A stretch of 64,000 nucleotides of DNA from Patescibacteria group bacterium (GTDB lineage Bacteria; Patescibacteriota; Microgenomatia; UBA12405), in assembly GCA_013387215.1 (NCBI GenBank), contig WARW01000001.1:119301-183300 (forward strand), read 5' to 3'. Made by a program: the position numbers and the translations under genes. Positions 5,000-51,998 of the stretch are shown here, piece after piece (the first letter of the stretch is position 1; each line of letters starts with the position of its first letter). The notes beneath the pieces are model-generated. The model saw nothing but the letters and a program-made list of their open reading frames with translations. It ran no database searches and had not been told where the DNA came from.

Positions 5000-5450
5000 A
5001 CTAATTATTTCCTTAAAAATAATTATTGTTTTATCATTGGTTTTCACTGTCGGCATTAATATTTACCAACTTCTCTTTCATCGGGATCCATTTACTTCTG
5101 TCAAAGCTCAATCATCATACCTAAATTTAGGTGAAAAATATCAAGGCCGTTTAAACTTTTGGTATCTTATGGCTGAAAACGGCGATTGGTCTTCTGCTGC
5201 TAAAATCGAAAACACGCTCGATTCCAACGATATTAACAACTATAAAAGCGCCTATGAGCCTCAAGAACTTCAAAAAAAGTTAACCAATTTAAATGGTAAA
5301 CCCAATAAAACACCTGATGATTGGGTGGAACTAGCCCGCATTCAATCAATGATTGGCAATATCGTTGATGCTAAAAAATCCCTAACCGAAGCTTTCAAGC
5401 TTGATCCGGTTCGTGATGATATTCAAAAGCTTTATTATCAGTTCAATTAA
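4989..5450 (+). CDS. hypothetical membrane-anchored protein
   Basis: N-terminal TM helix, then helical repeats of TPR-like character. Overlaps the valS stop by 11 nt. Confidence 0.35.
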   Translation: MKSKLIISLKIIIVLSLVFTVGINIYQLLFHRDPFTSVKAQSSYLNLGEKYQGRLNFWYLMAENGDWSSAAKIENTLDSNDINNYKSAYEPQELQKKLTNLNGKPNKTPDDWVELARIQSMIGNIVDAKKSLTEAFKLDPVRDDIQKLYYQFN

Positions 5451-5460
5451 TTTGTTCCAC

Positions 5461-5495
5461 AAAAAAACCACGGGTTTTAACCGTGGTTTTTGATT
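5461..5495. terminator. bidirectional rho-independent terminator between convergent genes
   Basis: AAAAACCACGG-GTTTTAA-CCGTGGTTTTT: perfect 9-11 bp stem flanked by A-run and T-run, between the 4989..5450 (+) gene and rplY (-). Confidence 0.6.
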
Positions 5496-5515
5496 TACTT
5501 ATTAAAAAGTAAGAA

Positions 5516-6196
5516 TTATTTTTCTTCTTTTTCTTCTTTCTTTTCAGCTTCAGCTTTAGCTAATTCTTCAGGAGATTTTTGGGCAGTAGCTGGAACTTCA
5601 CCAGGAGCAACTTCAGCAACAACTGGTTCTTCTTCTTCACGAGGTTCTTCAACTTTAACGATCACTTGTTCAGCATCAGTTAAAATTTCCACCTTAGATC
5701 TATCAACATCCAAATCAGCCACAGTCACCATAGAATCGACATTTTCCAAAACGGAGATATCGACAATAATGCTTTCTGGTAAATCAGTTGGCAATGCTTC
5801 AACTTCGACTTCTTCAGTAACTGGAACTAAAATGTTTCCAGCTTTAACAGTTGCAGATTCACCCACAAATTCGATTGGTACGAAAGTAGTGATTTTTTCT
5901 TTTAAGTTAACTTTGTAGCAGTCGATGTGCATCAAATCACCGCTAACTGGGTGGTATTGAGCGTTTCTAAATAAGACTGGTAATTTTTCTTTATCTAAAT
6001 GTAAATCAATTAAGCCTGATTCTCCAACTTCTTCGTAAATCTTTTCTAATTCCACAGTTGGAACTTGAATAGAAATAGGTTCAAAACCTTTTCCGTAGAC
6101 AGTAGCAGGAATTAAACCGCTCTTTCTTAACTGTTTAACTTTTCGGCCTAAAACAGTTCTGTTTTGAGCACTGATTTTATGATTTTCTTTTGTCAT
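5516..6196 (-). CDS. rplY: 50S ribosomal protein L25, general stress protein Ctc form
   Basis: N-terminal L25/Ctc domain (RTVLGRKVKQLRKSGLIPATVYGKG) with an acidic C-terminal tail. A GAAGGGG RBS is upstream. Confidence 0.8.
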   Translation of the reverse strand: MTKENHKISAQNRTVLGRKVKQLRKSGLIPATVYGKGFEPISIQVPTVELEKIYEEVGESGLIDLHLDKEKLPVLFRNAQYHPVSGDLMHIDCYKVNLKEKITTFVPIEFVGESATVKAGNILVPVTEEVEVEALPTDLPESIIVDISVLENVDSMVTVADLDVDRSKVEILTDAEQVIVKVEEPREEEEPVVAEVAPGEVPATAQKSPEELAKAEAEKKEEKEEK

Positions 6197-9257: not shown

Positions 9258-9324
9258 AGTGGGTATGCATGTCCCTAGATCCCCCTTGAGGGGAGATTCG
9301 AACCATTACCAGGCACTTGATTAG
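9258..9324 (-). other. tRNA 3'-half relic with duplicated tRNA-Ile 3' end
   Basis: Immediately 3' of tRNA-Ile, 14 nt of its 3' end (CATGCATACCCACT) recur after a 53-nt insert. The insert contains a T-loop-like GGTTCGAATC and a CCCCTCAAGGGGG hairpin. Confidence 0.35.
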
Positions 9325-9398
9325 TGGGTATGCATGGATTCGAACCATGGACCCCCGACTTATAAGATCGGTGCTCTAACCAACTGAGCTACATACCC
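9325..9398 (-). tRNA. tRNA-Ile with anticodon UAU (unusual in bacteria)
   Basis: Reverse complement folds as GGGTATG-TA-GCTC-AGTTGGTTA-GAGC-A-CCGAT-CTTATAA-GTCGG-GGGTC-CATGG-TTCGAAT-CCATG-CATACCC-A. Anticodon positions 34-36 read TAT. The 5' half closely resembles tRNA-Ile. No CCA encoded. Confidence 0.65.
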
Positions 9399-21523: not shown

Positions 21524-21599
21524 TCCCCTGTAGCTCAGTCGGTAGAGCGTCCGCCTGTTAAGCGGCAGGTCCTTGGTTCGAGTCCAAGCGGGGGAGCCA
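21524..21599 (+). tRNA. tRNA-Asn (anticodon GTT), CCA encoded
   Basis: TCCCCTG-TA-GCTC-AGTCGGTA-GAGC-G-TCCGC-CTGTTAA-GCGGC-AGGTC-CTTGG-TTCGAGT-CCAAG-CGGGGGA-G-CCA. Closely resembles canonical bacterial tRNA-Asn. Confidence 0.85.
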
Positions 21600-23177
21600 T
21601 ACTGGATTTGCAGGTCGCAAATCATCATTTTTCTCCATAATATCCGTATACTTTTGAGGTTCTAGCCAACCTTTATATTTTTCACTCCAATTTTGTTTAT
21701 CAGCCAATATTCCATATTCAGGTTTTAGCTTAACATCCACTAATTTATCAGTATTGAAGATGAGGTTCGCGCCAATAGTCATAAGAATCATTTGTTTATC
21801 AGCTCTAGAACCACTATTAAATTTGTATTGGCAAACTCTGGCAAATTCAATAGTATTTTCAACCTTGGTTCTCCAATCATCTAAGTCGTCAGTTGTACTA
21901 TCTAATTTGACCTTAATTTCATTTTTTTTAGCTTCAAGAATTTGTTTTTTCTCTTTGTAAGTTAGGTCATCAATAGTTTCATCCAGTTTCATGTCTAAAA
22001 GCTTATTCAATCGTCTTTCTATATTAGATAATTCTGTTTGTTGAGATTTAAGTTTTTCTTCTTTAAAACCAGATTCATCTTTATGAATGACAGAAAGCCA
22101 TTTGTTTGACCAATTAATGAAATCTTGGTCAGGAGTAAGTTTTATTAACAATGTGTCTAACTGTTTTAAAACATCTGCTTCGGTCAATGGTTTTGAATCA
22201 CACTTAATCTTTTTATTTTTCTTAGTGCAGTGGTAATAAGTGTAAGTAACAATTCGCCCAGTTCCTAAATAATGTTTAGTTTTTTGAGAAGCTGTTATTG
22301 CAGAACCGCATTTTTGACAACGAAATAACCCTGTTAAGTCAAAAGTATGGGTATGAGCAACTGGTTTACCAAATTTACCCAAAGCTTTCTGAACAATATC
22401 AAACTGTTCTCTGGTAATCATTGGTTCATGATGCCCATTAAACCAATTACCTGAACCTTGTGGATACTCAAATTCACCATAATAAAAAGGTTTATTAAGA
22501 ATATTGTAAAAAGTTGACCTTGAAAAAATTTGACCATGTTGGTTAGTTAATTTCCAAATCTCCGAAGCTTCTTTATAAACTTCAATTGCTTGTTTTCCTT
22601 TAATAACTTCCAAAAATAGTCTTTTAACCAAATCAAACCTTTCTTCGTCCTTAACAATTACTTTAAATCCTTTCTTTCTGTCTGGAGTATTCTTGTAACC
22701 CAACGGGGAAGATGATGGCATCCAGCCCATACCAGCTTTTGTACCCATTCCTCTTTTTGCATTTATTCCACGATTATCATTTTCTAATTTTGCCTGTCCA
22801 CATAAAATATTAAATAAAAATTTATCATTTGGATTGTTTCTAAAAACTTGGGTAGGAGTAATTATTTCGTCTAAAACATTTCTATCCATCATATAAATTA
22901 TTTGACCAGAATCTACTGAATTTCTGGATAGTCTGTCTGGATTCCATACAAGTATTTTTTTAACTTGTTGAGATTCCATATCTTTTAGTAATTGATTAAA
23001 AATTGGTCTTCCTGGCTTTTTGGCAGATTGTGATTCTTCATAATATGGAGTAACTAATTCAAGACCATCTCTTTTAGCTAATTTTTCTAAAGCTTCAATT
23101 TGAGAAGGGATAGAAAGAGCTTGTCTTTCTTCATCTTCTTGTGATTTTCTACAGTAAACAAAAACTTGGTTTTTCAT
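21558..23177 (-). CDS. large serine recombinase (resolvase/invertase N-terminal domain, recombinase and zinc-ribbon domains)
   Basis: N-terminus MKNQVFVYCRKSQEDEERQ...LSIPSQ (catalytic Ser region YxRxS), a long recombinase domain and a Cys-rich zinc ribbon (CQKCGS...YYHC). The last 14 codons (WLPRLDSNQGPAA) are encoded antisense to the tRNA-Asn 3' half; the stop codon lies in the anticodon loop. Start placed at the second Met. Confidence 0.8.
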   Translation of the reverse strand: MKNQVFVYCRKSQEDEERQALSIPSQIEALEKLAKRDGLELVTPYYEESQSAKKPGRPIFNQLLKDMESQQVKKILVWNPDRLSRNSVDSGQIIYMMDRNVLDEIITPTQVFRNNPNDKFLFNILCGQAKLENDNRGINAKRGMGTKAGMGWMPSSSPLGYKNTPDRKKGFKVIVKDEERFDLVKRLFLEVIKGKQAIEVYKEASEIWKLTNQHGQIFSRSTFYNILNKPFYYGEFEYPQGSGNWFNGHHEPMITREQFDIVQKALGKFGKPVAHTHTFDLTGLFRCQKCGSAITASQKTKHYLGTGRIVTYTYYHCTKKNKKIKCDSKPLTEADVLKQLDTLLIKLTPDQDFINWSNKWLSVIHKDESGFKEEKLKSQQTELSNIERRLNKLLDMKLDETIDDLTYKEKKQILEAKKNEIKVKLDSTTDDLDDWRTKVENTIEFARVCQYKFNSGSRADKQMILMTIGANLIFNTDKLVDVKLKPEYGILADKQNWSEKYKGWLEPQKYTDIMEKNDDLRPANPVWLPRLDSNQGPAA

Positions 23178-23459
23178 AAAATAAATTAAAAAATAAAAAT
23201 ACCCTCGCTGGTGCAACCAGAACTTATACAGCTCTGTCCAACGAGGGTATTTCTAAGTTGTATAAATTGTTCTGGTTGCATAATAATTATACTATTTTTG
23301 AATCATAAATTCACTATTTTTCTCCTAATAAACCAATAATATTAAATAGTTATTAAAGTAATAGTTACATTAATAAAATTAACCTTATAAGTAATAAATT
23401 ATTATTAATTTATTAAAGTAAAAGTTACTCTATAGTTAGAGTTACTATATACATAGTTA

Positions 23460-30643: not shown

Positions 30644-31216
30644 ATGACAGTAGAAGAAATTGAAGAAATACTTGAAGCTGGAAAAGAGACCCAAAAGGTT
30701 GATTATAAAGAGTCGTGTCCTTGGGATGAATTTACATTTATTAAAGACTTTCTTGCGATGGCAAATAATCAAGATGGTGGAATGATTGTAATCGGAATGA
30801 AAGAAGATGGTCAAACATTTACGAGACAAGGAATAATACCAGAACACAAAACTACTTATAAGATTGATGTTATGAAAGATAAAGTTGGCAAGTACGCCGA
30901 CCCTTATGTTTTTTTTGATGTTGACTTTCCAAAAGACAAAAACGGTCTTGAATATGTCGTAATAACTATATCCCCATTTGATAAAGTACCAGTCATTTGT
31001 AAAAAAGATGGTAAAGAAAATTTTGTAACAATCGGAAGTATTTACCATCGCGGATTTAATAGGCGAGCTGAGAGTACAAGAGTTTCAAGTTATTTTGATA
31101 TGAGAGAAATTATTGAAAGAGCAACAGTTAAGATGATGCAACACTTTGAAAAATTAGATTTAAAACCATCAAAAACAATAGAGGATAAATTTAAATCAGA
31201 AAGAGGTGACCTATGA
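30644..31216 (+). CDS. AlbA_2 (Schlafen-like) domain protein
   Basis: ETQKVDYKESCPWDEFTFIKDFLAMANNQDGGMIVIGMKEDGQ matches the AlbA_2/Schlafen core (E..d.K.....i.AfaN..GG.i.iGv.d.g). Confidence 0.5.
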   Translation: MTVEEIEEILEAGKETQKVDYKESCPWDEFTFIKDFLAMANNQDGGMIVIGMKEDGQTFTRQGIIPEHKTTYKIDVMKDKVGKYADPYVFFDVDFPKDKNGLEYVVITISPFDKVPVICKKDGKENFVTIGSIYHRGFNRRAESTRVSSYFDMREIIERATVKMMQHFEKLDLKPSKTIEDKFKSERGDL

Positions 31217-31938
31217 CAAGTAATGAAATAATTGCCAAGATTAAAACTAGAGGATATTGGAGAATTGTTTTTGAACCATTAGAGTTTATACCTGATAAGT
31301 ATCCTATTTCAGACTGCAAGGAACTAGTCAATAAAAACAAAGTTAGTATGAGAGGTTGGGACTACCCTCATTATCCTGTTAGACAAGATGATGATTCAAA
31401 ACTTGAACCTGGGAATAACTATTGGCAAGGATGGATTGATTGGGAAAGATATAAAGAATTCTGGAGGTTTTATCAGAGCGGACAATTTGTTCACTATCTT
31501 GGTGTTCGTGAGGACTGGTCGGAAGACATCATTTTCAAAAATATGTGGGAGCAAGGCGATAGAACAATAAAACCAGGAGAGGCGCTCGGGGTAGTAAGTA
31601 CAACCTTTTTAATGACAGAAATTTTTCATTTTTTATCACGACTTATGATTGATGGGGTTTATCAAACAGGTGTAAAAGTCAAAATTTCGCTGATAAATAC
31701 AAGCAATAGACAACTTTTTATTGAGTCTTTTGATAGGGTGCCATTTACTTCACCAAGAACTACTGCAGGTTCAGAATTAAATTACGAAATCACCTTGTCA
31801 AAAGGTGATTTACTGACCGATATAAATAAAGCTGCCGAACAAGTAATTGTATTTTTCTATAAAAGATTTGGTTGGGACCCACCTAATATAGAAGTAATCA
31901 AATCAGACCAAGAAAAACTTGTAAGTGGAAGATTGTAA
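31213..31938 (+). CDS. hypothetical protein, translationally coupled to the AlbA_2 gene
   Basis: ATGA start/stop overlap with the upstream gene; no recognisable motif. Confidence 0.35.
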   Translation: MTSNEIIAKIKTRGYWRIVFEPLEFIPDKYPISDCKELVNKNKVSMRGWDYPHYPVRQDDDSKLEPGNNYWQGWIDWERYKEFWRFYQSGQFVHYLGVREDWSEDIIFKNMWEQGDRTIKPGEALGVVSTTFLMTEIFHFLSRLMIDGVYQTGVKVKISLINTSNRQLFIESFDRVPFTSPRTTAGSELNYEITLSKGDLLTDINKAAEQVIVFFYKRFGWDPPNIEVIKSDQEKLVSGRL

Positions 31939-33506: not shown

Positions 33507-35063
33507 TTAAAACCCACAAACAGCAGTCCTGATTGAATCTAGGACGGGGAGCAAGTTGCTTGTTAATATAAGTGATTTTTGTTTGATCAGCTCAGCCACT
33601 AAAGGAGAATATTCCACACTTACAATGTTTTTATTATCCACATTAATTCTATTGAAGAAAAAATTTAAATATCTTCTTTTAAGAAAAACGGGGGAGTTAG
33701 AATAAGTTTTTGGGATATTTCTTGTAATGGAGAGCACTTCTGAAAGCAAATCAAAATCAAATTCTCTATTCGTATCCAATTTAGCCAATTCAGTATTTAC
33801 ACAATAAATATCATTCTGAATAATCGGATTTTGTGCTTTATAGTCTTCAGGTTCAATAGTTTCATCAAGTAAACGTGCCAATAAAATCTCAGCCTTTTTA
33901 GTTAACTCATTCTTCCTTCTCATAAGTCTATTTCTTTCCTTATCCTCTTCCTTTTTTCGCTCTTTTAGATATCTCTTTATTTTTACGACTAAAGCATTTG
34001 TAAACGCTTTTGAAAATTTAATATTTTGGAAATAGTTTTCAACCTTTCCTTCTAATTCATTTACTTCAACGCTTGGAGCATCACACGGAAACCTTTTGGC
34101 GCAATGATATATGCCATATTTTCCATCCCATTTTGCAAACTTAACATTATCATAATGATATTCTGCGGTATATCTCTGACCGCAACGATCACAAAAAATA
34201 ACGCCTCTTAAAAGGAAATCGTATTTTCTTTCCCTTATAATAAAATTTCTATGTTTAGCAGCTACCTGTTGGCACAAATCGAATGTCCGTTTAGAAATCA
34301 AAGGAATATGTTTACCAAGTTTTTGCTGCCCTTTCCATTGCATTAGACCATAATAAAAAGGATTGGTTAGAATTTTATTCATTGTGGAATGTGCTAATGG
34401 TTTTCCAGTTCTTGTTCTTAACCCCTTTTTTGATAAAAAGCTAATAAGACGAAACAAACTATAATTACCAGTCGAATATTTTTTAAAAGCAAGTGTAATA
34501 AAAGGACTAATTTTCTTATCGATTACAACTATTCCTTTATTATTCTTCCTTTGATTTTTGTAACCTAAAGGTGCCCATCCAGGCCACCAACCTTCTTCCC
34601 ATTTTCGGTCTAACCCTCTTTTAGTTTTTCTACTCAGGTCTTCTGAATAAAATTGATTTATACCTGCCATAAATGTATCCAACATCTTTCCTTCTGGAGA
34701 TTCGTCAAGCATAGGCTGTACAACCGAGATTAGTCTTGTGCCCACCGCTTTTATTCTTTCTTTAATTAAAAAATGGTCTGTTGCATTACGAGCGAATCTA
34801 TCGGTGTTATATACAATTATTGCTGCAGGTTTTATTGTATCCACCTGCTCTAACATTTTTAGAAATTCAGGTCTGTTTGAAACCGTAGCACTTTGACCTT
34901 CATCAACAAACGTATTTAAAACATTGTAATGTTGCCTTTTAGCCTCTTTTAGACAAATATCTTTTTGAGCATCAATAGAGTACCCTTCTTTTGCTTGTTC
35001 TTCAGTAGAAACTCTACAATAAATAAAACAATTTAATTTATTATTATCGTTTTCCATATCCAT
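33507..35063 (-). CDS. large serine recombinase 2
   Basis: N-terminus FIYCRVSTEEQAKEGYSIDAQ (catalytic Ser), recombinase domain and zinc ribbon (CDRCGQ...YHC). C-terminal tail PVLDSIRTAVCGF is encoded antisense to the relic tRNA 3' half, parallel to recombinase 1. Confidence 0.8.
   Translation of the reverse strand: MDMENDNNKLNCFIYCRVSTEEQAKEGYSIDAQKDICLKEAKRQHYNVLNTFVDEGQSATVSNRPEFLKMLEQVDTIKPAAIIVYNTDRFARNATDHFLIKERIKAVGTRLISVVQPMLDESPEGKMLDTFMAGINQFYSEDLSRKTKRGLDRKWEEGWWPGWAPLGYKNQRKNNKGIVVIDKKISPFITLAFKKYSTGNYSLFRLISFLSKKGLRTRTGKPLAHSTMNKILTNPFYYGLMQWKGQQKLGKHIPLISKRTFDLCQQVAAKHRNFIIRERKYDFLLRGVIFCDRCGQRYTAEYHYDNVKFAKWDGKYGIYHCAKRFPCDAPSVEVNELEGKVENYFQNIKFSKAFTNALVVKIKRYLKERKKEEDKERNRLMRRKNELTKKAEILLARLLDETIEPEDYKAQNPIIQNDIYCVNTELAKLDTNREFDFDLLSEVLSITRNIPKTYSNSPVFLKRRYLNFFFNRINVDNKNIVSVEYSPLVAELIKQKSLILTSNLLPVLDSIRTAVCGF
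33513..33550 (+). other. degenerate copy of the tRNA-Asn 3' half (attR-like relic)
   Basis: CAGCAG-TCCTGATTGAATCTAGGACGGGGAGC aligns with tRNA-Asn positions ~39-73 (CGGCAGGTCCTTGGTTCGAGTCCAAGCGGGGGAGC). It has the same orientation as the tRNA and is overlapped antisense by the C-terminus of the second serine recombinase. Confidence 0.45.
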
Positions 35064-36212: not shown

Positions 36213-36375
36213 AACTGTATTATATATGATTTGTAATATTTCTCAACTTTAGTCTAAAAAGTAAGACTAATATTTATAAATAATTTGAACAGTAATTTCT
36301 GTAATTTTTAACCAAAAAGAACAAATCTCTTGTTTAAATTTTTGTAATAGTGAGTACAATATCAGTAAATCGTAT

Positions 36376-37818
36376 ATGGATCTAAGATTTTCAAAATATT
36401 TTAAATTAGAAAAAAAACAGCATGAGCTTGATTTTGTTGATGTACCTTTAAATACTGATATTCGACTATTTATTGACCCTTACACGCTCTCTATAAGAAG
36501 CGACGAATTTTCAATGCAATGTAGCAATATAGTTATAAATTTTTTTCAAAGAATAATTGATGATATTAAAGACGGTCGATTTGAAAGTGCAAAATATAAC
36601 TTGAATAGACTTAGAGAACCTAATGAAACACACCTTGGTTTATCAAATGAAAATCCAATAGGTAAAGGAGTAAGTGGTAAACAGTCAATCGATATTTTTG
36701 AAAAATTAAAAAATAGTAGAGCTACAAAAACTGGTTTTTTAAAAGATTTATCTGATTGTGAATTGGTAATACCAGGGATTAGTAGGGATAAAATTTCCGA
36801 CATAGTTACTAATATTATTAAGATAAAATTATTAGAATATACACAGGCACAGTGTAATACATATAATATTCCCACCATTCCCGTTTCTTCAGGAAAATAT
36901 TGGAATCCCCAAAAAGGTATATGGGAAGAAGAATATTTTAATTTGCCTGTATATAAAAATAAAAAAATTATTTTAGTTCCTAAAGCAATTGTTCGTTATA
37001 CCTTAGAATACAATCAAAAAAAATATTACAATGGTTTCGTTTTAGAGTTTCTGCAGGAAGAACATCTCAATGCCAATACAGCCTTAGTACAATTGTTAAA
37101 AAATGGTACAAGAAGGGTAACTAAAAAGGATTTAAAAAAAGATCCTCGTTATAAACCAACAAAACAATTTTTATATGAATTTTCTAACGAGCATCCAGAA
37201 GTATTCGAGAAATACACTGACTCTCTACCTGAAAATGTTCCTTCATTATCAAATGAACAAATAGAGGCTAAACAACAAATTAGTGAAGATTTCGATTATG
37301 ATGCTTTAATCGAAAATCTTAAAAAGATTCCTACTGGTAAAGAAACTGAAGACGATTACCACAACTTGATAATAGGTATCTTAGAAGTAATTTTTTATCC
37401 AAATTTATTTAGCCCAGAAAAGGAAGTTCGAATTCATAATGGTAGGAAAAGAATAGATATTACTTATCAAAATGCAGCTAAGGATGGATTTTTTGAATAC
37501 ATAATTAACCACGTACCTTGTCCCTTTATTATCGCTGAATGTAAAAACTATAGTGAAGATCCTCAAAACCCAGAACTCGATCAATTAAGCGGTAGGTTTT
37601 CACCAAGAAGAGGTAGATTCGGCTTTTTAGTTTGTAGAAAAGTTGAAAATAAGGATTTGATGGATCAAAGATGTAAAGATACCGCGTGTGATGATAGAGG
37701 TTACATAATGGTGTTAGATGATAATGACTTGATAACTCTTATTAATTTTAGAAAAAGAAATGATCAACAATCGATTGAAGATTTTTTAACTAAAAAATAT
37801 AAAAACTTAGTAATGTAA
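36376..37818 (+). CDS. protein with C-terminal PD-(D/E)xK nuclease domain (first gene of a three-gene operon)
   Basis: C-terminal RIDITYQN...PFIIAECKNY...GFLVCRK matches the D...ExK restriction-endonuclease-like core; N-terminal ~330 aa of unknown function. Confidence 0.4.
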   Translation: MDLRFSKYFKLEKKQHELDFVDVPLNTDIRLFIDPYTLSIRSDEFSMQCSNIVINFFQRIIDDIKDGRFESAKYNLNRLREPNETHLGLSNENPIGKGVSGKQSIDIFEKLKNSRATKTGFLKDLSDCELVIPGISRDKISDIVTNIIKIKLLEYTQAQCNTYNIPTIPVSSGKYWNPQKGIWEEEYFNLPVYKNKKIILVPKAIVRYTLEYNQKKYYNGFVLEFLQEEHLNANTALVQLLKNGTRRVTKKDLKKDPRYKPTKQFLYEFSNEHPEVFEKYTDSLPENVPSLSNEQIEAKQQISEDFDYDALIENLKKIPTGKETEDDYHNLIIGILEVIFYPNLFSPEKEVRIHNGRKRIDITYQNAAKDGFFEYIINHVPCPFIIAECKNYSEDPQNPELDQLSGRFSPRRGRFGFLVCRKVENKDLMDQRCKDTACDDRGYIMVLDDNDLITLINFRKRNDQQSIEDFLTKKYKNLVM

Positions 37819-37820
37819 AA

Positions 37821-38558
37821 ATGAAGAAGATACGAAGAAGTAGCTTAAGAAGCCATAAGATAAAAAACAAAGAATTGGAATCTATATTTTCAGGATTAAA
37901 AATGAGCCAAGTTTACTGGCATAAAGATTTGCTTCCAGAATTTTTCTGGATAGAAGCACTTGTTAATTATTATGGAGAAGAGAGAGCAAATCATTATTAC
38001 AACGAATTTTTAGATTCTATTGAAAAGATATTTATTAATAATTCAAATATATATATTGGTATAGTAAGTGATTTTGGAGATATACCAGAAAAATATAGAA
38101 ATAAAATTGTAGAAAATAATAAATTATTAATTGAAGATGTAATTTACAAACCATTTGCGAATATTATAAAAATTTATCCAAATATTCCAATGAAATGGTT
38201 ATTGCAAGGTTTTGACTTATCAAAGATCGATGAACAAGATGGAATAAAACAAGTTGTTGAAGCTATTAAAAGACTGTATCCTGCAAAGGATAATCATTGT
38301 GGTTTTTGTAGGGCAATTCCACTTAATAGATATTTTAAACATAAAAAAATATTTCTAACGTCAAATTTAGCAGAAACAATAAAAGCAGTTGAACAATATC
38401 CATTGGGAGATAGATACAGGGTTGAAACTTTAGCAAGAAATATAATTAACCACGATATCTTAAATAAAATTAACTCTTGTATGATCTCTGATAAGTTACT
38501 TTGGTCAAAAGATTTTTGGTGTACTAATTATAAATTGACAAAATGTGATGAACAATGA
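37821..38558 (+). CDS. hypothetical protein (operon gene 2)
   Basis: Starts 3 nt after the upstream stop; no recognisable motif. Confidence 0.35.
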   Translation: MKKIRRSSLRSHKIKNKELESIFSGLKMSQVYWHKDLLPEFFWIEALVNYYGEERANHYYNEFLDSIEKIFINNSNIYIGIVSDFGDIPEKYRNKIVENNKLLIEDVIYKPFANIIKIYPNIPMKWLLQGFDLSKIDEQDGIKQVVEAIKRLYPAKDNHCGFCRAIPLNRYFKHKKIFLTSNLAETIKAVEQYPLGDRYRVETLARNIINHDILNKINSCMISDKLLWSKDFWCTNYKLTKCDEQ

Positions 38559-39355
38559 TTTCAAAAAAACAAAGAAGCTCTATAAATAAACTCAGACAAG
38601 CAACTAATCGCGGAAGAATAATGATTGATGATGTATTAGAGATCATCAGGAACCAAGTAGACAATCAACAAGTAAACATATATGAACCAGAAGAAAACGA
38701 AGTGATAAATGGATTATTTTTTAGAGTTCTACGTTTTTATCACTCTTATGTAATAAGTTTTCACTTTTGGGCAGAAGATATGCATAGAATAATTACAAGA
38801 ACCATTATTGAATCATTTATTTATCTTTCATATTTAATAAATACCAATAAAAAAGAAATCTACCTGGAATTTATTAAATATGGTATTGGTCAAGAAAAGT
38901 TATATAAACTCCAATTAGCAAAATTAATTGAAGAGAAAAAAATACAACCGTCAAGTGAAATAATAGATTATATAAATTCTGATAGTGATGAGGAAATTTG
39001 GGATGAATTAATATCAATAAAATTAAAAAATTTTGAGGACTTGAGAAAACTGTCAAATAAAATAAACGAAAGCGAACTTTACAGTATTAAATATCAACCC
39101 TATTCTGATGTCATACACGGACATTGGATGGCTTTAAAAAAATATTATCTAAAGAAATGTTCTAACCCAATGCATAGATTTCATTACATACCAAACTTTA
39201 TATTGCCAAACATTAATCCAATAGGTTTAGTTGAAATTACTAATCTCTTTTATCAATGCTATTTATTATGGATTAAGAAAAATAATTTTGAAAATAAAAT
39301 TGAGAAAGTAATTGATTCTTATCTAAATGATTTAAATCAAATATTCTCAATATAA
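38555..39355 (+). CDS. hypothetical protein (operon gene 3)
   Basis: ATGA overlap with the gene 2 stop; no recognisable motif. Confidence 0.35.
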   Translation: MISKKQRSSINKLRQATNRGRIMIDDVLEIIRNQVDNQQVNIYEPEENEVINGLFFRVLRFYHSYVISFHFWAEDMHRIITRTIIESFIYLSYLINTNKKEIYLEFIKYGIGQEKLYKLQLAKLIEEKKIQPSSEIIDYINSDSDEEIWDELISIKLKNFEDLRKLSNKINESELYSIKYQPYSDVIHGHWMALKKYYLKKCSNPMHRFHYIPNFILPNINPIGLVEITNLFYQCYLLWIKKNNFENKIEKVIDSYLNDLNQIFSI

Positions 39356-39461: not shown

Positions 39462-39650
39462 TTAGTTTAATAATGAGTCAAAATCATTTCTTTTAGTCTT
39501 ATAATTACTTTCATCAAAACTAAATTCTTTTAATATTTCACAGCCTTTGGTTTGGTAATATTTCTTTAGTCTCTCAACCTCAGCTGGGAATGATATTCCA
39601 GCCTCTTTTTGTTCGTCTGTACCAACCCGCGCAATTATTATTGATTTCAT
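39462..39650 (-). pseudogene. serine recombinase/resolvase N-terminal fragment with catalytic Ser replaced by Gly
   Basis: MKSIIIARVGTDEQ...LKKYYQTKGCEILKEFSFDESNYKTKRNDFDSLL aligns to the resolvase N-terminus (ARVSTdeQ ... G.sG....R.gl..LL) but stops after 62 aa; S to G at the catalytic position. Confidence 0.55.
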
Positions 39651-40865
39651 TTATTTCCCGGATTTAATGCGGTTGTCATCTTTACAAAGCATTTGACAGT
39701 TGGCATAATCTGTTTTACCGCCTAATCTCCAAGGTTTTATATGATCAGCTTCCATTTCACCATATTCAAAATGTGCATTACCACAAACAGCATTTTTAGC
39801 GACACAAATACCTTTTTGTTCATTGTATTTTTTAATCTTAGTTTTCTCGTCAAATGTACGTAAACTCAAAGTTCGTTCATCACCCGTTAAGACATACTCA
39901 TAGATGCCTCTTTTATTCTCTACTTCATCATCGTCAATCAATTCTATAATCCTCTTTTCCAAAGTTTCAGAATTTAAACTCTCATCTTTATGTTGGTTAT
40001 AAAACCTTCCCCATTCCAAACCTTTCATTAACTGTACGCGAACACTCGTTTGGTTAGGGAAAACTTTATTCGCCCAATCAACTACATTGCGATAGTAACC
40101 ACGAATCTCGTCAGCGTTCTCGGTGTTCTGGTGATCAGCCATATACTCCTCAATACCCTTATGACTATTGTCGTAATCATGACTAATCCAACGTAAGGCC
40201 GTTTCTAAAATTTTTTGCCTGTTTGCTTCGCCAGTAACAAGATTTTTACCAAGTTCAATTGCTGGCCCGCCGGTTTTACTAAAAAATCTTTTTGCATCCA
40301 TTAGCCATTTACCGGTATAGTTTGCATTGCGAATTTCTTGGGGTGTTTGTTCCAGACCAGCAATATTTATAACATTAAACCATGTTATTTTTTCATTTGG
40401 TGTGCCTTCACAAATATAAATTGACAATTCATAGTCTAAAAACTCATTTTGCTGATCGCGAGTTAAATTGCTAAACTTTTTAGGAGCACCTTCCCAGTTA
40501 ATTGAAAACTCACCGCTTAAATACTGACCTTGCTCACCAATTTCTGCCTTGGTAATATCGCCCACATACTGACAGATACTTATAGTGCGTTGTTGACCAT
40601 CTATTACTTCGTATTGATCATTGCCGATTTTTGCCCAGTACATCACATTGAGGGGAAAGCCATGTCGGACAGTTTCTATTACCAAATTTCGTTGTTTCTC
40701 ACCGTATACAAAGTTGCGCTGAAAAGCCGGACGAATGTTTAACTTACCACCGTAACCAACAACTGGTCCTTCTTGCTCACTTTCGTCGCAGTAACCTGCA
40801 ACTAAATCACGAACAGTTATTTTTGGTGCTCCATCCTCACGACCGGAGAGTTTAATTTGCATCAT
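39651..40865 (-). CDS. DUF262 (ParB-like) plus DUF1524 (His-Me finger/HNH) nuclease, GmrSD-like
   Basis: N-terminal VIDGQQRTISI (DGQQR motif of DUF262/GmrS). C-terminal ADHIKPWRLGGKTDYANCQMLCKDDNRIK (HNH-like DUF1524). Confidence 0.65.
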   Translation of the reverse strand: MMQIKLSGREDGAPKITVRDLVAGYCDESEQEGPVVGYGGKLNIRPAFQRNFVYGEKQRNLVIETVRHGFPLNVMYWAKIGNDQYEVIDGQQRTISICQYVGDITKAEIGEQGQYLSGEFSINWEGAPKKFSNLTRDQQNEFLDYELSIYICEGTPNEKITWFNVINIAGLEQTPQEIRNANYTGKWLMDAKRFFSKTGGPAIELGKNLVTGEANRQKILETALRWISHDYDNSHKGIEEYMADHQNTENADEIRGYYRNVVDWANKVFPNQTSVRVQLMKGLEWGRFYNQHKDESLNSETLEKRIIELIDDDEVENKRGIYEYVLTGDERTLSLRTFDEKTKIKKYNEQKGICVAKNAVCGNAHFEYGEMEADHIKPWRLGGKTDYANCQMLCKDDNRIKSGK

Positions 40866-41923
40866 TATGTTATCTCCTTTCTTTTAATAAAAATACGTGC
40901 ATAAATAAGTTTATATTCATCGCCAACTTTTATAGAGCCGCGCCTGTTTAAGTCGCCATATTTAGGGCTATCGGCAGATGTGTAAACTCTTGTTTTCAAA
41001 CCTGAGTTATTATCTCTATCAGTTATCCCTAAAATCTCAAATTGATCAGGGTTGTACTTATCCAGAAAAGTTATTGGCACACCCATTGGCTCAAAATAAT
41101 CTTCGGGAATATCTTTAACCTTGTCAATTTCTATTGCGTCGTAGTTATCATATTTTGGATATTGTTCTGGTAAATAGCGTCTATATAAATCTAATGGTTC
41201 GTGGCGTTTACTGACATCTAAATTTGTATACCAACCTTTATTTCCAAATTTTTTCAGTGTTCCGTTTGGTTGCATAAACTCTTTTACTCTTTTATAACCG
41301 CGCCAAATTTTATTATTTTTGATCAACGGAAAAACTTCTTTTAAAGTAATCCAGTTATCATCCCCAATTATTAAAAATTCTTTTTTGTATTCAAATAATT
41401 GCGCAATGTATTCACGCGCCAAACTAAAAGGAGGATTAGTACACACAATGTCTGCTTCTTTTAATAATTCAACACACTCGGCGCTTCTAAAATCGCCATT
41501 ACCTTTGAGGGGTGTCGCAACATTTTTATTATTTTGCAACAGCCACTGTACATCGGAAATATCCACTGCACCATCATTATTGCTGTCGGGCACCTGATTT
41601 ATTTCTATTTTGAGTGGTGTTTTATTTTTTCTCGATGATACTATCTCACGCGCACCAGCAATGTCACCGATTGATAATTGCGTGAAAGCTATAGGTGATG
41701 GAATGTAACTCGTGGCAATCAGTTTCCTAAGTCCTAATGCATTAAAACTGCTAGCAAAATATTTAAAGAAATTGCTCTCAAACGGATCATCGCAATTCAG
41801 AAGAACTATTTTATTTCTAAACTGCATTGTATAGTATCTTAGCTCGTTTTCTATATCGGCAAGTTGAGTGTAGAACTCATCGTTTCTTACCTCTCTGGCC
41901 TTAATTAGATTTGTGTTAGTCAT
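40865..41923 (-). CDS. DNA methyltransferase (amino-methyltransferase, NPPF motif IV)
   Basis: Motif IV DIVCTNPPFSL and N-terminal SAM-binding-like region (LLNCDDPFESNFF). Stop overlaps the start of the DUF262 gene (ATGA). Confidence 0.6.
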   Translation of the reverse strand: MTNTNLIKAREVRNDEFYTQLADIENELRYYTMQFRNKIVLLNCDDPFESNFFKYFASSFNALGLRKLIATSYIPSPIAFTQLSIGDIAGAREIVSSRKNKTPLKIEINQVPDSNNDGAVDISDVQWLLQNNKNVATPLKGNGDFRSAECVELLKEADIVCTNPPFSLAREYIAQLFEYKKEFLIIGDDNWITLKEVFPLIKNNKIWRGYKRVKEFMQPNGTLKKFGNKGWYTNLDVSKRHEPLDLYRRYLPEQYPKYDNYDAIEIDKVKDIPEDYFEPMGVPITFLDKYNPDQFEILGITDRDNNSGLKTRVYTSADSPKYGDLNRRGSIKVGDEYKLIYARIFIKRKEIT

Positions 41924-42235: not shown

Positions 42236-42823
42236 ATGAACCAAGTAGCAAATGAAATCGCATTAGGAATTTTAAAAGCTATTCCTTGGTGGCTTTGGGT
42301 TATTATCATAATTTTTGCCATTCTTGGACCAGAAGAGAATATCCGTCGCCGTCGTCATTCATATAAAACAAAAGGTATTTTAGAAATCTTTGTTGATTGG
42401 ATTTGGTATCAATTAGCTGAAAAGAAAAAAATTGAGAAATCAGGTATTAATAATATTGACCGTATGAGCGGTTATCAATTTGAAAAATATTTAATCAATC
42501 TTTTTATTCGTCTTGGCTACAAAGTTCGTCATGTTGGAAGTAATTACTATCAGCATCATGGTGATTTTGGGGCCGACTTAATTGTTGAAAAAGATGGTGT
42601 TAAAACCGCCGTTCGAGCCAAAAACTATAATAATCTAGTGGGTATTGAAGCTGTTCGTCGAGTTCTTGGTGCTATTAACTATTATCAATGCCAAAGGGGA
42701 ATTGTTGTTACTAATAATTTCTTTTCTTTCGACGCTAGAACTCAAGCTAGTGTGAGTAATGTTGAATTGTGGGATCGAAATAATCTTATTGATGTTATTT
42801 CTAAATTAAACACCAATAAATAA
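42236..42823 (+). CDS. membrane-anchored Mrr-cat (restriction endonuclease-like) domain protein
   Basis: N-terminal TM helix plus RRRRH; Mrr_cat-like core (QFEKYLINLFIRLGYKVRHVG...GDFGADLIVEKDGVKTAVRAKNY). Paralog of 45063..45740. Confidence 0.55.
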   Translation: MNQVANEIALGILKAIPWWLWVIIIIFAILGPEENIRRRRHSYKTKGILEIFVDWIWYQLAEKKKIEKSGINNIDRMSGYQFEKYLINLFIRLGYKVRHVGSNYYQHHGDFGADLIVEKDGVKTAVRAKNYNNLVGIEAVRRVLGAINYYQCQRGIVVTNNFFSFDARTQASVSNVELWDRNNLIDVISKLNTNK

Positions 42824-42852: not shown

Positions 42853-44496
42853 TCAATAACTACTTTTTATATAGTAGTAACCAATCAATCCTATGATAAT
42901 TATCCAAAACAAATAAATACTTATAGCTCCCGCAATAATTAAAACAATACCAATCAAAACTATATTCCAATATTTTTTTTGATTTGTTTCATATTTTTGC
43001 CTTGTTTCTCCAAAATAATCCAAAATATATTGCCACCTATCCGTTGCTTTTATATATCCAAGCATCTTTTGTAACTCTGACTCTTCAATCTGTTTGATTT
43101 GTATTTTTTCTTCGTTGGTTAGTTTCTTCTTACTGCTTTGTAAAGATTTTTCATTAATATACCTCACTAAACCAGCATCACCTTCTCCAAAAAATAAGAC
43201 TGCTTTTGATTTTTTACCGTCTCTTCCAATTCTTCCCATTTGCTGGTAATAATCTTCAATGTTTTGAGGAATACACCAATGTATAGCAATTCTAATATCA
43301 GGAATATTTACACCCATTCCAAAAGCCGAGGTACAAATTAATACTTTCCATTTTGATGGAACAGTTCCTTTGTATTCATCTTGAATTCTTATTTTGTCTT
43401 CTCTGTTTTGTTTGCCATAAAAGAATTCGCAGTTAACATCTTTTCTTACGAGTTCCCTCCAAACCAAACTTCCTATTTTGATTGTTGGCACAAATATAAT
43501 GATTCTTTCATCGTTGTATTCACTAATTATATTAATAATTAAATTTATTTTTTCTTCATCAACTTGTTCCTTTTGACCGTCAAATATTTTTACATATAAA
43601 TCAATTTCTGGTCTGTAAAATCCGGTCACAAAAACAGCAGGATGAACCAGTCCTAATGAAGTAATAATATTTTGTTGTACACGTTTTGAAGCTGAAGCAG
43701 TTAAAGCTATGGTTTTGGGATACCCCAACACCTTTCTTAACTCTTTAAGTTGTGCATAAGAAGGTCTAAAACTTCGGCCCCATTTATCAATACAATGTGC
43801 TTCATCAATAGCTAATAAATCAAATTCATTTTGTAGAAGGGGATGATTAAGTTTAATTTTATTGTCCTGGTATTTATCAAAAAATTGTTCTGGTGCCACA
43901 TAAATAAAACGAAACAATTTTTGAGCAAACATACTTAATCTATTTTCTTTTTCTTCTTGTTCCAAGTCACTATTAATAAATGTTGCAGGAATTCTTTTTT
44001 CCCATAAATTTTCCACCTGATCTTTCATTAATGCTTTCAGCGGTGTAATTACCATTGTTTGATTTTCCAAAGCGATGCCTGGTAATTGAAAGCAAACTGA
44101 TTTTCCTGAACCTGTTGGCATAACAACTAAAACATCTCTACCATTAAGCACAGCTTTAATAATTTCTTGTTGATGTAATCTAAATGTTGTTTTGTGGGTA
44201 AGAAGATAAAGTAATTTTTTTAAATCTTTCTGTTCGGGAAGTTGTAATACATTTCTAAAAAGATTGTTTAATCTAAAAACGATATCTGAAAAATATTTTG
44301 TTTGATATTCGATGTGTTTGCTTGAGTGGCATGTTCGACACAATGTTACAAGATTTGACGGATTATTTTCACCACCCCATTTTTCTGGGATTACATGATG
44401 AATATTTAAATTCTCTTTACTGCCACATTCGATGCACTGATGATGGTCTCTATTTAAAACTAAATTTCTTATTTCGTCCGATAAATATATTTTCAT
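42853..44496 (-). CDS. HNH endonuclease fused to RecQ-family DEAH helicase, with C-terminal TM helix
   Basis: N-terminal HNH (HHQCIECGS...NIHHVIP...NLVTLCRTCH). Helicase motifs I VVMPTGSGKS, II DEAH, V TSAFGMGVNIPDIR, VI QQMGRIGRDG. Hydrophobic C-terminal 35 aa. Confidence 0.7.
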   Translation of the reverse strand: MKIYLSDEIRNLVLNRDHHQCIECGSKENLNIHHVIPEKWGGENNPSNLVTLCRTCHSSKHIEYQTKYFSDIVFRLNNLFRNVLQLPEQKDLKKLLYLLTHKTTFRLHQQEIIKAVLNGRDVLVVMPTGSGKSVCFQLPGIALENQTMVITPLKALMKDQVENLWEKRIPATFINSDLEQEEKENRLSMFAQKLFRFIYVAPEQFFDKYQDNKIKLNHPLLQNEFDLLAIDEAHCIDKWGRSFRPSYAQLKELRKVLGYPKTIALTASASKRVQQNIITSLGLVHPAVFVTGFYRPEIDLYVKIFDGQKEQVDEEKINLIINIISEYNDERIIIFVPTIKIGSLVWRELVRKDVNCEFFYGKQNREDKIRIQDEYKGTVPSKWKVLICTSAFGMGVNIPDIRIAIHWCIPQNIEDYYQQMGRIGRDGKKSKAVLFFGEGDAGLVRYINEKSLQSSKKKLTNEEKIQIKQIEESELQKMLGYIKATDRWQYILDYFGETRQKYETNQKKYWNIVLIGIVLIIAGAISIYLFWIIIIGLIGYYYIKSSY

Positions 44497-45062: not shown

Positions 45063-45740
45063 ATGACACAAACAGTTGGTATGGGTGACATAATTTGGCA
45101 AATAGTTAAAGGAATTCCTTGGTGGTGTTGGATAATTATACTAATAAGTGCTGTTGCAAGCCCGACTACTAGAAGAAGATATAAAAGACGTAGGTATTAT
45201 AGTAATTACAATAAATCTCTATTCGATGAAATAACTGATTCTATGGTTAATTTTATATTGAACTGTTTCAAAAGAAATTTTTCAGTAAAAAGACAAACTT
45301 TTTCGCAAACATACGCAACTAATTCCACTCAACAATCTACTATGAACCAAGAATCAAGTATCTGGGAAATTGATCAAATGACTGGTAGAGAATTTGAAAA
45401 ATATTTAGAAAAATTATTTATTAAACTAGGTTACAAAGTAAATAGGGTTGGAACGTGTTGGTATGACCATAGAGGGGATTTTGGTGCCGATTTGATTGTT
45501 GAAAAAGATGAAATTAAAACTGCAATTCAGGCTAAAAATTATAAAAATAATAATTTAGTAGGAATTAATTCTGTAAGAGAAGTTATCGGTGGTCTTAGTC
45601 ATTATAATTGTCAAAAAGCTGCTGTTATAACAAACAGTTATTTTACTAATGATGCTAAAGTTCAAGCAGGGGACAGTAATGTGAAATTACTTAATAGAGA
45701 TGATTTAATTAAACTCATTTCACGAACTGAAATAAAATAA
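45063..45740 (+). CDS. membrane-anchored Mrr-cat domain protein (paralog)
   Basis: Same architecture as 42236..42823 (TM, RRRYKRRR, Mrr_cat core REFEKYLEKLFIKLGYKVNRVG...GDFGADLIVEKDEIKTAIQAKNY); ~60% identical over the C-terminal domain. Confidence 0.55.
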   Translation: MTQTVGMGDIIWQIVKGIPWWCWIIILISAVASPTTRRRYKRRRYYSNYNKSLFDEITDSMVNFILNCFKRNFSVKRQTFSQTYATNSTQQSTMNQESSIWEIDQMTGREFEKYLEKLFIKLGYKVNRVGTCWYDHRGDFGADLIVEKDEIKTAIQAKNYKNNNLVGINSVREVIGGLSHYNCQKAAVITNSYFTNDAKVQAGDSNVKLLNRDDLIKLISRTEIK

Positions 45741-49865: not shown

Positions 49866-51998
49866 GTGATTTTTGTGAAGAGAATTATAATTTATCTTAC
49901 TATTGTGTGTCTCTTGATACTTTCAATGGCTAACACTTGCTATGGCATTGTCCTTAAGAAACCGGTTCCAGCTCCCATTTATAAGATTTACGGTTTAGAT
50001 TATTCCCCTTATATTGGAGCTAATCAAAGTCCAGGAAACAGTATTAGTGAAGACCAGATCAGAAAAACTCTGATGCAGATCAAGCCATATACGACTTGGA
50101 TTCGAACTTATGGCTGCACAGATAGTTTAGCCAATGTTGGTAAAATAGCCCATAGTTATGGACTAAAAACTGCTATTGGCGCTTGGTTGAGTAAGGATTT
50201 GGTTGCAAATGACAAAGAAATTGCCAATTTGATTAAAATTGCCAAAGCAGGACAAGCCGATCTTTTGATTGTTGGTAGCGAAACTTTGTATCGTCATGAC
50301 CTGACTGAAACTCAATTGGTTCAGTACATTAATAAGGTCAAAAACGAAGTACCAAAGATTCAAGTTGCTACGTCTGATACGGCTAATATGTTTATTCTGT
50401 ATCCATCAATCATAAATTCTATCGACAGTGTTCTTGCTAATATTTATCCTTATTGGGATGGTCAGGACATAAATAATGCTATGACTTCTCTAAACTCCCA
50501 ATATGTGCAGCTAAAAAAAATTGCTAAAGACAAAAAGGTTATTATTTCAGAAACAGGCTGGCCAAGTTCAGGTAACACTATTAACAAAGCTGTTCCTTCC
50601 GTGGAAAACGCAGCATTTTATTTCAAGAATTTCATTTCTTGGGCTAAAGCTACCAAAACCCAATATTTTTATTTTGAAGCCTTTGATGAACCCTGGAAGG
50701 GAACACCTCAGGCTCCTCAAGAAGCTCATTGGGGTATTTGGGATAACAACCTAAAGATGAAGTCCAAAATGATTGATGTTTTTCAAGGAAAAACCATCAA
50801 AAATAATTGGACTACTCCTAATCAAAAGTCGGTTTCCTTACCTGATCTAACCTTAGACAGTATTGCTTCCAATAGATATCTTGGCTCTTATGGAGATGCA
50901 AGCATATCAAGCAAGACAACCAGCAATTTTACCCTTACTTTAGGTAAAGATGTTAATACATGGGGTTCAGTTGCGGTTGATGTTGGTACTTGGGTAGGTG
51001 AGAAAGCTCTAGATTTATCTGGTTATAAGTATGCCATTATTCGTGCCAAAGGTGCCAAAGGTGGCGAGAAGTTTAGATTTGGTCTAGGTGTTGGTCCGAC
51101 AGATTATTTGTACGATAAAGGTTTAACTACTAATTGGCAAAACATAGTTATTGATCTTTCAGTTAGTATAAGAAACCTTAAGGATGTCAAACAGATTGGA
51201 TTTGAAATTGGTAGTCAATGGACAGGTAATAAAGTAGGGACAAAAATTTATATCGACGGTATAACGTTTAGTACTTCTAAAACACTAAAACCTGTACCTA
51301 CACCAACCCCGAAACCGACAATGACACCCAGTCCGACTCCGAGGCCTACGGCTACACCAAGCCCAACACCAAGTCCGACTCCTGTTCCAACCCCCAGTCC
51401 TACGCCCGTTACTACACCTAGCCCTACACCAACCCCGAAACCGACAATGACACCCAGTCCGACTCCGAGGCCTACGGCTACACCAAGCCCAACACCAAGT
51501 CCGACTCCGAGGCCTACGGCTACACCAAGCCCAACACCAAGTCCGACTCCTGTTCCGCTTCCAGATCTTCCAATATCAAGCATCACAGGCAACAGTTTTT
51601 GTTCCTATGGTGACGCTGGTTTATCCGATTATGCTAGTAATAGCTCTTTCGCAATAAACTTGCTCAGAAACACTGATACTTGGGGTTCGGTTGCAGTCAA
51701 TGTTGGTACTGGTGCTAATGTAACTGCTTTAGACCTATCTGGCTACAAGTATGCGATTATTCGTGTCAAAGGTGCTGTCGGAGGCGAAAAATTCAGATTT
51801 GGTCTGGGTTATGGTCCTACTGACTTTTATTACAATCAAGGTTTAACAACAGATTGGCAGGATATCAAAATTGATATAAGCAATTTTTCAAGAAACTTGA
51901 AAGATGTTAAGCAGATCGGTTTTGAAATAGGCAGTCAGTGGACTGGTAATGCTGTTGGGACCAAAATATATATTGGTGGAATAAAATTCACCGATTAA
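49866..51998 (+). CDS. secreted glycoside hydrolase family 17-like (beta-1,3-glucanase-like) enzyme with PT-rich linkers and two copies of a ~130-aa C-terminal domain
   Basis: Signal peptide. The catalytic domain ends in the [11 protein letters not shown] signature (the ETGWPS motif of GH17). Then a tandem PT-rich linker and two ~130-aa domains (SYGDA...TWGS...[29 protein letters not shown]...GLTT.WQ.I.ID...[25 protein letters not shown]). Confidence 0.55.
51296..51560. repeat. 126-bp tandem repeat (2.3 copies) encoding a Pro/Thr/Ser-rich linker
   Basis: Unit ACACCAACCCCGAAACCGACAATGACACCCAGTCCGACTCC... at 51300-51383 repeated identically at 51426-51509, plus a partial third copy; lies in-frame inside the GH17 gene. 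Confidence 0.65.

Follow-up and report, generated by a model that had tools for sequence, protein, structure and literature searches.

The question raised by this locus is whether three genes packed end to end on one strand make up a single anti-phage defence system. The genes, here designated A, B and C, occupy positions 36376-39355 of a 64,000-nucleotide (nt) stretch of contig WARW01000001.1 (positions 119,301 to 183,300 of the forward strand; assembly GCA_013387215.1) from a Patescibacteria group bacterium, the whole of which is referred to below as the window. Gene A (36376-37818, + strand) encodes 480 amino acids (aa), gene B (37821-38558, + strand) 245 aa and gene C (38555-39355, + strand) 266 aa, and all three open reading frames (ORFs) lie exactly where an earlier note on this DNA had placed them. 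That note read them as one translationally coupled operon and as an uncharacterised candidate defence system with a nuclease at the C-terminus of its first protein. The data presented here indicate that the locus is probably composed of two independent candidate anti-phage modules, with A as module 1 and the B-C pair as module 2, that came together through defence-island accretion, the island being low in GC and rich in recombinases. Both modules would serve in defence.

The distribution of the genes in other genomes carries this reading. With one genome taken per species, relatives of A were found in 327 genomes; 80 of these loci were fetched and inspected over ±8 kilobases (kb), and no B or C homolog lay within that distance of A in any of them. 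A was also found on 12 IMG/VR viral contigs, again with no B or C, so that the total stands at 0 of 92 other A loci. In the opposite direction, a survey of 40 other B-C loci (six on long contigs and 34 from metagenomes) revealed no homolog of A, with around 22 of the 40 having enough upstream sequence to hold one. A and B-C are therefore independent of one another, and the proposal of one three-gene system is not supported by the comparison. Furthermore, when the window was aligned with the closest A loci (L001, L002, L009 and L026) by tblastx, similarity began at 36358-36379 and ended at 37812-37823; the block of homology is exactly the A ORF and stops at the A stop codon, which argues that A is independent of B-C.

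The tight gene packing that had suggested a single system is real but is weak evidence of functional coupling. The A/B junction (37816-37823, + strand), which is also the module boundary, consists of the TAA stop, a 2-nt spacer (AA) and the ATG of B, rather than the 3-nt spacing originally described, while the ATGA start/stop overlap of B and C (38555-38558, + strand) was seen in the sequence as claimed. Typical junctions in the window range from a 4-nt overlap to a 6-nt gap, unrelated genes included: a resolvase remnant and a restriction endonuclease are separated by 0 nt, the endonuclease and its methyltransferase overlap by 1 nt, and a gene run at 27-30 kb has junctions from a 1-nt overlap to a 6-nt gap. 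Because tight junctions are this common, between unrelated genes too, spacing alone says little about functional coupling here. The probable co-transcription of A, B and C would reflect no more than the end-to-end packing of genes in this genome. Promoter-like and terminator-like consensus matches around the operon were not above shuffled-sequence expectation, no terminator-like site was found on the + strand between A, B and C in the consensus scan, and Rfam matched no RNA element in the locus, four tRNAs being its sole matches. The G+C content at third codon positions (GC3) is 0.18-0.20 in A, B and C and 0.30 in the restriction-modification (RM) genes.

Protein A has two parts, of which the C-terminal domain (residues 308-480; 37297-37818, + strand) is the more readily recognised. 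A restriction-endonuclease-like D...ExK core had been noticed in it from the motifs RIDITYQN (residues 358-366) and IIAECKNY (residues 385-392), and structure prediction, proposed at the time as a check, bears the assignment out. The AlphaFold2 (AF2) model of A (pLDDT 88.2, pTM 0.89) contains the alpha-beta-beta-beta-alpha-beta core fold of the PD-(D/E)xK superfamily, with the catalytic residues mapping to strands 361-366 and 384-389. The catalytic core (37456-37545, + strand) runs from D361 at the start of beta2 (GRKRIDI) to E388-C-K390 at the end of beta3 (ECKNY), and all 32 aligned homologs, at 48-68% identity, retain D361, E388 and K390; a catalytic D on beta2 and (D/E)xK on beta3, both conserved in the family, are among the features that place a protein in this superfamily, and A has them. 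The best structural matches of the domain are the cleavage domains of the restriction enzymes FokI, BspD6I, AspBHI, LlaBIII and MspJI. Foldseek with the whole A chain against the PDB gave weak matches only, to the same restriction enzymes, and no PDB sequence was a significant match to profiles of A, B or C. Judged by the predicted fold and the catalytic residues, the C-terminal domain of A is a FokI/Mrr-type PD-(D/E)xK nuclease. Homology of the three proteins to a housekeeping pathway and loss of the nuclease residues, the two outcomes that the earlier note had named as fatal to its proposal, were not observed.

The N-terminal domain (residues 1-300; 36376-37275, + strand), the presumed sensor or targeting module, is confidently folded in the AF2 model, being mostly helical with a small beta-meander, and residues E17, D19, D22, D28, D34, E81, N83, E129, D138, K139, S141 and D142 are invariant among the 32 homologs. 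No solved structural relative of this domain was found, no ligand-binding fold of the SAVED, CARF or STAND kind was detected in it, and likewise no SRA-type reader fold. Small plasmids of Bacillus and Acinetobacter also encode it as a stand-alone protein of around 315 aa. One such nuclease-free homolog (L085, 2500-3456) is carried on a 4.5-kb B. cereus plasmid with one other annotated gene, and another (L086, 3980-4924) on a 9.5-kb A. baumannii plasmid, where it adjoins a RelE/helix-turn-helix (HTH) toxin-antitoxin pair; a distant relative is found on around 44 Staphylococcus plasmids, and all of these proteins are annotated as hypothetical. Separate PADLOC and PHROG models have either the N-terminal half or the nuclease half in common with A, and the existence of models matching either half suggests that the N-terminal domain occurs with other C-terminal parts too. 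Its most likely role is that of a sensor or targeting part that controls the nuclease.

The family to which A belongs is large and patchily distributed. More than 3,227 homologs were found, with PF28123 in 120 of 120 among the matches listed; the best matches are in Roizmanbacteria and other Patescibacteria (64-69% identity), and relatives span Patescibacteria, Proteobacteria, Acidobacteriota, Bacteroidota, Firmicutes, Chloroflexota and others. A corresponds over its full length to phrog_27295 (2.7e-118) and matches two PADLOC models of PDC-M36A, PDLC04597 (2.3e-49, best stretch residues 4-230) and PDLC04598 (6.2e-20, best stretch residues 312-476). Neither A nor B had a match in NCBIfam or in the local Pfam, a release older than PF28123, and a tblastn search of A against the INPHARED phages gave no match. 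Literature searches on PDC-M36, PF28123 and DitA in a defence context found nothing.

No neighbouring family is conserved around A. The largest cluster of neighbours, a PDC-S41/Nhi/AbiO-like helicase-nuclease that is itself a separate candidate, accounts for 7 of the 80 loci. Same-strand ORFs flanking A include type IIG, type I and type ISP RM genes, AbiL/RloB, MkoC and MADS genes, Schlafen-type helicases, STAND NTPases (nucleoside triphosphatases), MazG-like proteins and Nhi-like genes, and the p419 plasmid of B. mycoides has its A homolog flanked by a Gabija-type pair (TOPRIM and UvrD-helicase genes), an integrase, and an McrBC-type pair (AAA-ATPase and McrC genes). A methyltransferase conserved beside A was not found in the 80 loci, and A does not therefore qualify as a type II/IIS RM enzyme; the methyltransferase domains in a few flanking ORFs are parts of type IIG or type I enzymes that are self-contained, and the EcoRI-like methyltransferase of the window is paired with its own REase_II and not with A. 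The M of PDC-M36 labels it as a multi-gene candidate, but PADLOC gave no other PDC-M36 component in B, C or ten window neighbours, and none was seen beside 78 A homologs among the 25 most frequent families of 92 flanking ORFs. The neighbour clusters c1/c2, a presumably MazG-like gene of around 110 aa and a gene of around 650 aa present in 4-7 of 80 A loci, were considered as the missing PDC-M36 partners and rejected, c1 being PDC-S41/Nhi/AbiO-like, hence a separate candidate, and found in <10% of loci. In four loci (L032, L034, L061 and L076) the A homolog is followed on one strand by a gene of around 105-141 aa, which is probably MazG-like, and then by a PDC-S41/Nhi/AbiO-like helicase-nuclease of 620-730 aa, with spacers <15 nt in L032 and L034.

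B and C had been described as lacking recognisable motifs, and this does not hold. C matches Pfam DUF5677 (PF18928) with 60.1 bits against a gathering cutoff of 27.1 (3.8e-16, profile positions 2-160 of 166), and the two proteins match successive, colinear parts of the PADLOC model of DitA, a component of the Aditi defence system: B aligns to positions 3-235 of 486 (E 1.4e-10) and C to positions 252-444 of 486 (E 8.5e-23). By BLASTP, B aligns with residues 1-194 of B. simplex DitA at 25% identity, and C with residues 302-389 of published DitA at 29-44% identity over 41-89 residues, the DitA sequences printed in the preprint supplements ending at 399 aa. At the level of sequence comparison, B and C are together a split homolog of Aditi DitA, the homology being remote. 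The profile hidden Markov model searches that the earlier note had recommended for all three proteins thus led to families for each of them (PDC-M36A/PF28123/phrog_27295 for A; DitA/DUF5677 for B and C), within the limits of the local Pfam and NCBIfam already given.

The association of B with C is conserved. The two are an adjacent pair, or one fusion of around 520 aa, in 32 of the 40 loci surveyed, the other 8 being cut by contig ends; the 34 metagenome loci comprise 17 with an adjacent C, 9 with a fused one and 8 where a contig end intervenes. In the six long-contig loci B and C overlap by 4-8 nt, with no further shared protein; L084 accounts for the 4-nt overlap, and the remaining five loci with called genes have one of 8 nt. 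A profile search with B returned 817 representatives of clusters at 50% identity, and the best 149 of these 817 include 59 split forms of 200-310 aa that lack the C domain and 59 long forms of ≥450 aa, the C domain following directly after the B domain in 59 of 59 long proteins. Many of these proteins match verified DitA directly, down to 8e-15. A frameshift in a fused DitA, making B-C a pseudogene, was considered and rejected, as the split form with overlapping junctions occurs in 23 other loci and 59 cluster representatives. Residues invariant in C include a His/Cys cluster (H188, C202, H207 and H210), and the closest homolog of C (L084, 6001-7242; 52% identity, 413 aa) carries a C-terminal NUDIX domain and is preceded by an overlapping B homolog; the cluster and this fusion in one close homolog are the only hints to the chemistry of B-C. 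In locus L090 a second, stand-alone DUF5677 gene (4662-5546, 294 aa) lies 455 nt upstream of the B-C pair, which indicates that DUF5677 genes can be duplicated or stacked.

Meanwhile, the second Aditi component, DitB, was not detected. Searching all ORFs ≥50 aa of the window by phmmer with both published DitB sequences gave nothing at E≤1, and none of 13 window proteins had a PADLOC DitB match. Tblastn at E≤1e-3 found nothing in the six long-contig B-C loci, the 34 metagenome loci gave nothing at the same threshold, and none was detected beside two fused DitA-like relatives, for a total of 0 of 42 loci. A itself is unrelated to DitB (hhalign probability 0.2%), and in many B-C loci, L083 and L088 among them, no neighbour is a plausible effector. 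One fused DitA-like protein (L091, 5001-7765; 525 aa) shares its island with Mrr_cat, NucS_C/DUF5655, ThsB_TIR and an HsdM fragment; the 331-aa gene that follows it contains, as judged by eye, a D...ESK pattern (SKIDLQM...VFLESKLG) that would fit a PD-(D/E)xK nuclease.

Aditi consists of DitA (483 aa) and DitB (372 aa), and its anti-phage activity was established with the two-gene system of Saccharibacillus kuerlensis, tested in B. subtilis; according to its authors, neither protein has a recognisable domain even by HHpred (Millman et al. 2022, 10.1101/2022.05.11.491447). The resemblance of module 2 to Aditi lies in B and C being colinear with the N-terminal half and the DUF5677-like C-terminal half of DitA, in the B-then-C order of the fused relatives of around 520 aa, which occur in defence islands such as L091, and in the lack of a known biochemical domain in DitA/DitB and B-C alike. 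DitA, however, is one polypeptide, whereas here there are two overlapping genes with 25-29% identity in the aligned stretches. The B-C pair is homologous to DitA but the locus does not have the composition of an Aditi system, because DitB was not detected. Module 1 is comparable to PDC-M36 in that A matches both PDC-M36A models, although the best stretch of each PADLOC model covers one half of A, with a second matched stretch for each. Its cleavage domain has FokI-type type IIS enzymes and nickases (FokI, N.BspD6I/R.BspD6I) among the top structural matches, but A differs from them in its sequence (around 10% identity), in an N-terminal part unlike the FokI DNA-recognition domains and in having no conserved methyltransferase. 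The nuclease domain similarly matches the type IV enzymes MspJI and AspBHI and the Mrr-like LlaBIII in structure, but the N-terminal domain of A is not SRA-like, and A has no PADLOC mREase_IV or Pfam Mrr_cat match.

In the model proposed for module 1, A would be a self-contained single-protein nuclease whose C-terminal domain is the DNA-cutting effector and whose N-terminal domain decides when or where it fires. FokI-type domains cleave as dimers and, by analogy, A would probably cleave only once two copies meet. As there is no conserved cognate methyltransferase, A may either read a feature of foreign DNA, in the manner of type IV enzymes, or be switched on by an infection cue; type IV-like recognition is slightly favoured because the closest structural matches are restriction enzymes. 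In module 2, the presumed arrangement is a DitA-like heterodimer of B and C and, with no detectable DitB, this lineage may act alone or with variable partners.

The surroundings of the locus agree with the defence-island context originally suggested for it. A low-GC stretch extends over around 22-50 kb (0.31, against 0.35 in the flanks), with values of around 0.27-0.32, and begins at a tRNA-Asn (gtt) gene (21524-21599). This gene adjoins a large serine recombinase of 552 aa (21558-23216, - strand), and the coincidence of tRNA-Asn, serine recombinase and low-GC onset points to a likely island boundary; no att-type direct repeats were found, nor any further copy of the tRNA-Asn 3' end in the window. 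A second large serine recombinase (33507-35063, - strand; Pfam Resolvase, Recombinase and Zn_ribbon_recom), 26% identical to the first, lies upstream of A. On the other side, 107 nt from the end of C, is a 62-aa N-terminal remnant of a serine recombinase (39462-39650, - strand), and its truncation there suggests a past rearrangement. The remnant reads ARVGTDEQ and the intact 33507-35063 recombinase CRVSTEEQ, the catalytic serine apparently being glycine by eye. A type II RM pair follows, made up of a GmrSD_N+HNH nuclease (39651-40865, - strand; PADLOC REase_II, 1.2e-111) and an EcoRI-like adenine methyltransferase (40865-41923, - strand; PADLOC MTase_II, 1.2e-99). Pfam and PADLOC therefore confirm the neighbours that had been reported (methyltransferase, GmrSD-like nuclease and recombinase remnant), with a full large serine recombinase besides. 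Such recombinases are put forward in the literature as markers of defence loci (PMC12632615).

Further along, two paralogous small Mrr-like nucleases (42236-42823 and 45063-45740, + strand), with PADLOC matches to the ZorD C-terminal, mREase_IV and PDC-S02 models, share 70% DNA identity over 197 nt and have hydrophobic N-termini. They flank the gene of a 547-aa HNH-DEAD helicase (42853-44496, - strand) that combines an N-terminal HNH with a DEAD/Helicase_C/RecQ_Zn_bind core and has a hydrophobic tail at its C-terminus; PADLOC matches it best to DpdF (2.8e-101) and PsyrT (5.5e-70), with no other Dpd genes among the scanned proteins. Between the tRNA-Asn and A, a Schlafen AlbA_2 protein (190 aa, weak PDC-S50 match) and a 241-aa gene with no family match overlap by 4 nt (30644-31938, + strand) and are possibly another two-gene defence candidate of the island. 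Elsewhere in the window, ARAGORN identified a tRNA-Ile with anticodon TAT (9324-9398, - strand) adjoining two tRNA-Met (CAT) genes; UAU isoleucine tRNAs are uncommon in bacteria. A degenerate tandem repeat with register shifts of 12-60 nt (51290-51562) apparently encodes a Pro/Thr/Ser-rich low-complexity stretch and coincides with a local GC peak of 0.43.

Other explanations of the locus have to be set against the two-module reading. It is improbable that the three genes form one integrated system in which B-C is the sensor or regulator and the upstream nuclease A is the effector in the DitB slot. The 2-nt A-B spacer, the B/C overlap, the clear run between the genes in the terminator scan and the similarly very low GC3 of all three would suit such a system, as would the absence of DitB, which could leave a partner slot open; the NUDIX fusion of a close C homolog, and the D...ESK gene after the L091 fusion, hint at varied effectors. 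Against this, there is no comparative support for it from the 92 A and 40 B-C loci, loci such as L083 and L088 dispense with any plausible effector, the homology of A ends at its own stop codon, A bears no likeness to DitB, and tight junctions are generic in the window. A broader version would make DitA-like proteins, fused or split, general sensor or regulator modules with interchangeable effectors, namely DitB in Aditi, the fused NUDIX in P0122, the PD-(D/E)xK-like gene in L091 and A here; this is speculative and very doubtful. If true, the window would hold a unique three-part Aditi-like system with an effector of known biochemistry, a first handle on the Aditi mechanism, and the N-terminal domain of A would be a new defence-sensor fold common to thousands of proteins.

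A rather less remote alternative, though still an unlikely one, concerns A by itself: it may be an infection-triggered abortive-infection effector, with an N-terminal domain that senses a phage protein or small molecule and frees a non-specific, lethal DNA cleavage. The modularity of that domain fits this, since it occurs alone on small plasmids, including beside the toxin-antitoxin pair of L086, and PADLOC and PHROG models of either half suggest other pairings; the lack of a conserved methyltransferase partner fits equally. The top structural matches of the nuclease are nevertheless restriction-enzyme cleavage domains, not CBASS or CRISPR effectors, and no SAVED, CARF or STAND fold was detected in the N-terminal domain. 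There is little likelihood that the genes have no defence role and serve a mobile element (in plasmid or island maintenance, exclusion or DNA processing), or are decaying cargo. Homologs of the N-terminal domain alone are found on very small, gene-poor plasmids, A homologs are on viral contigs and the locus sits between a serine recombinase and a recombinase remnant, all of which would suit an element-borne function, as would the result of the only reported test of a DUF5677 ORF, which gave no defence (PMC12632615). However, the A family is patchy over many phyla and adjoins known defence genes, and DitA is part of an experimentally verified defence system. A, B and C are not decaying either, because their ORFs are intact and the family-invariant residues are kept.

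Several observations weigh against the two-module defence reading and temper it. The 2-nt A-B junction, the lack of a detectable terminator and the similar GC3 are compatible with joint expression and possibly joint acquisition of the three genes. Verified Aditi needs two genes, and the DitB component was not found here. The DUF5677 ORF in question was tested in E. faecalis and was not among the protective ORFs (PMC12632615), while PDC candidates are predicted by guilt-by-embedding and are mostly unvalidated (PMC12988326). Several A neighbourhoods hold housekeeping genes (ribonucleotide reductase, MutS, ArgRS). Finally, the role of the N-terminal domain is one that we purely infer, and a second catalytic site could explain its invariant acidic residues equally well.

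With these points taken into account, the locus keeps its status as a candidate for defence but its genes are recognisable, as both modules are already catalogued in databases; it is not a new kind of system, because both families have entries (PF28123/PDC-M36A/phrog_27295 and DUF5677/DitA). What is new is modest: the placement of A next to B-C is unique among the approximately 130 loci examined, DitA-like proteins are frequently split and were without detectable DitB in 42 loci, and the N-terminal domain of A is without any solved relative. The locus illustrates that co-occurrence across genomes defines a system and that, in a compact genome, spacing of the translational-coupling style does not. 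The PF28123/PDC-M36A family is large, spans many phyla and looks single-gene, which makes it a cheap candidate for validation. Furthermore, the DitA family is much wider than Aditi, with at least 817 clusters at 50% identity and around half of its best-matching members split, and the lack of a detectable DitB in 42 loci changes what the minimal Aditi-like unit may be.

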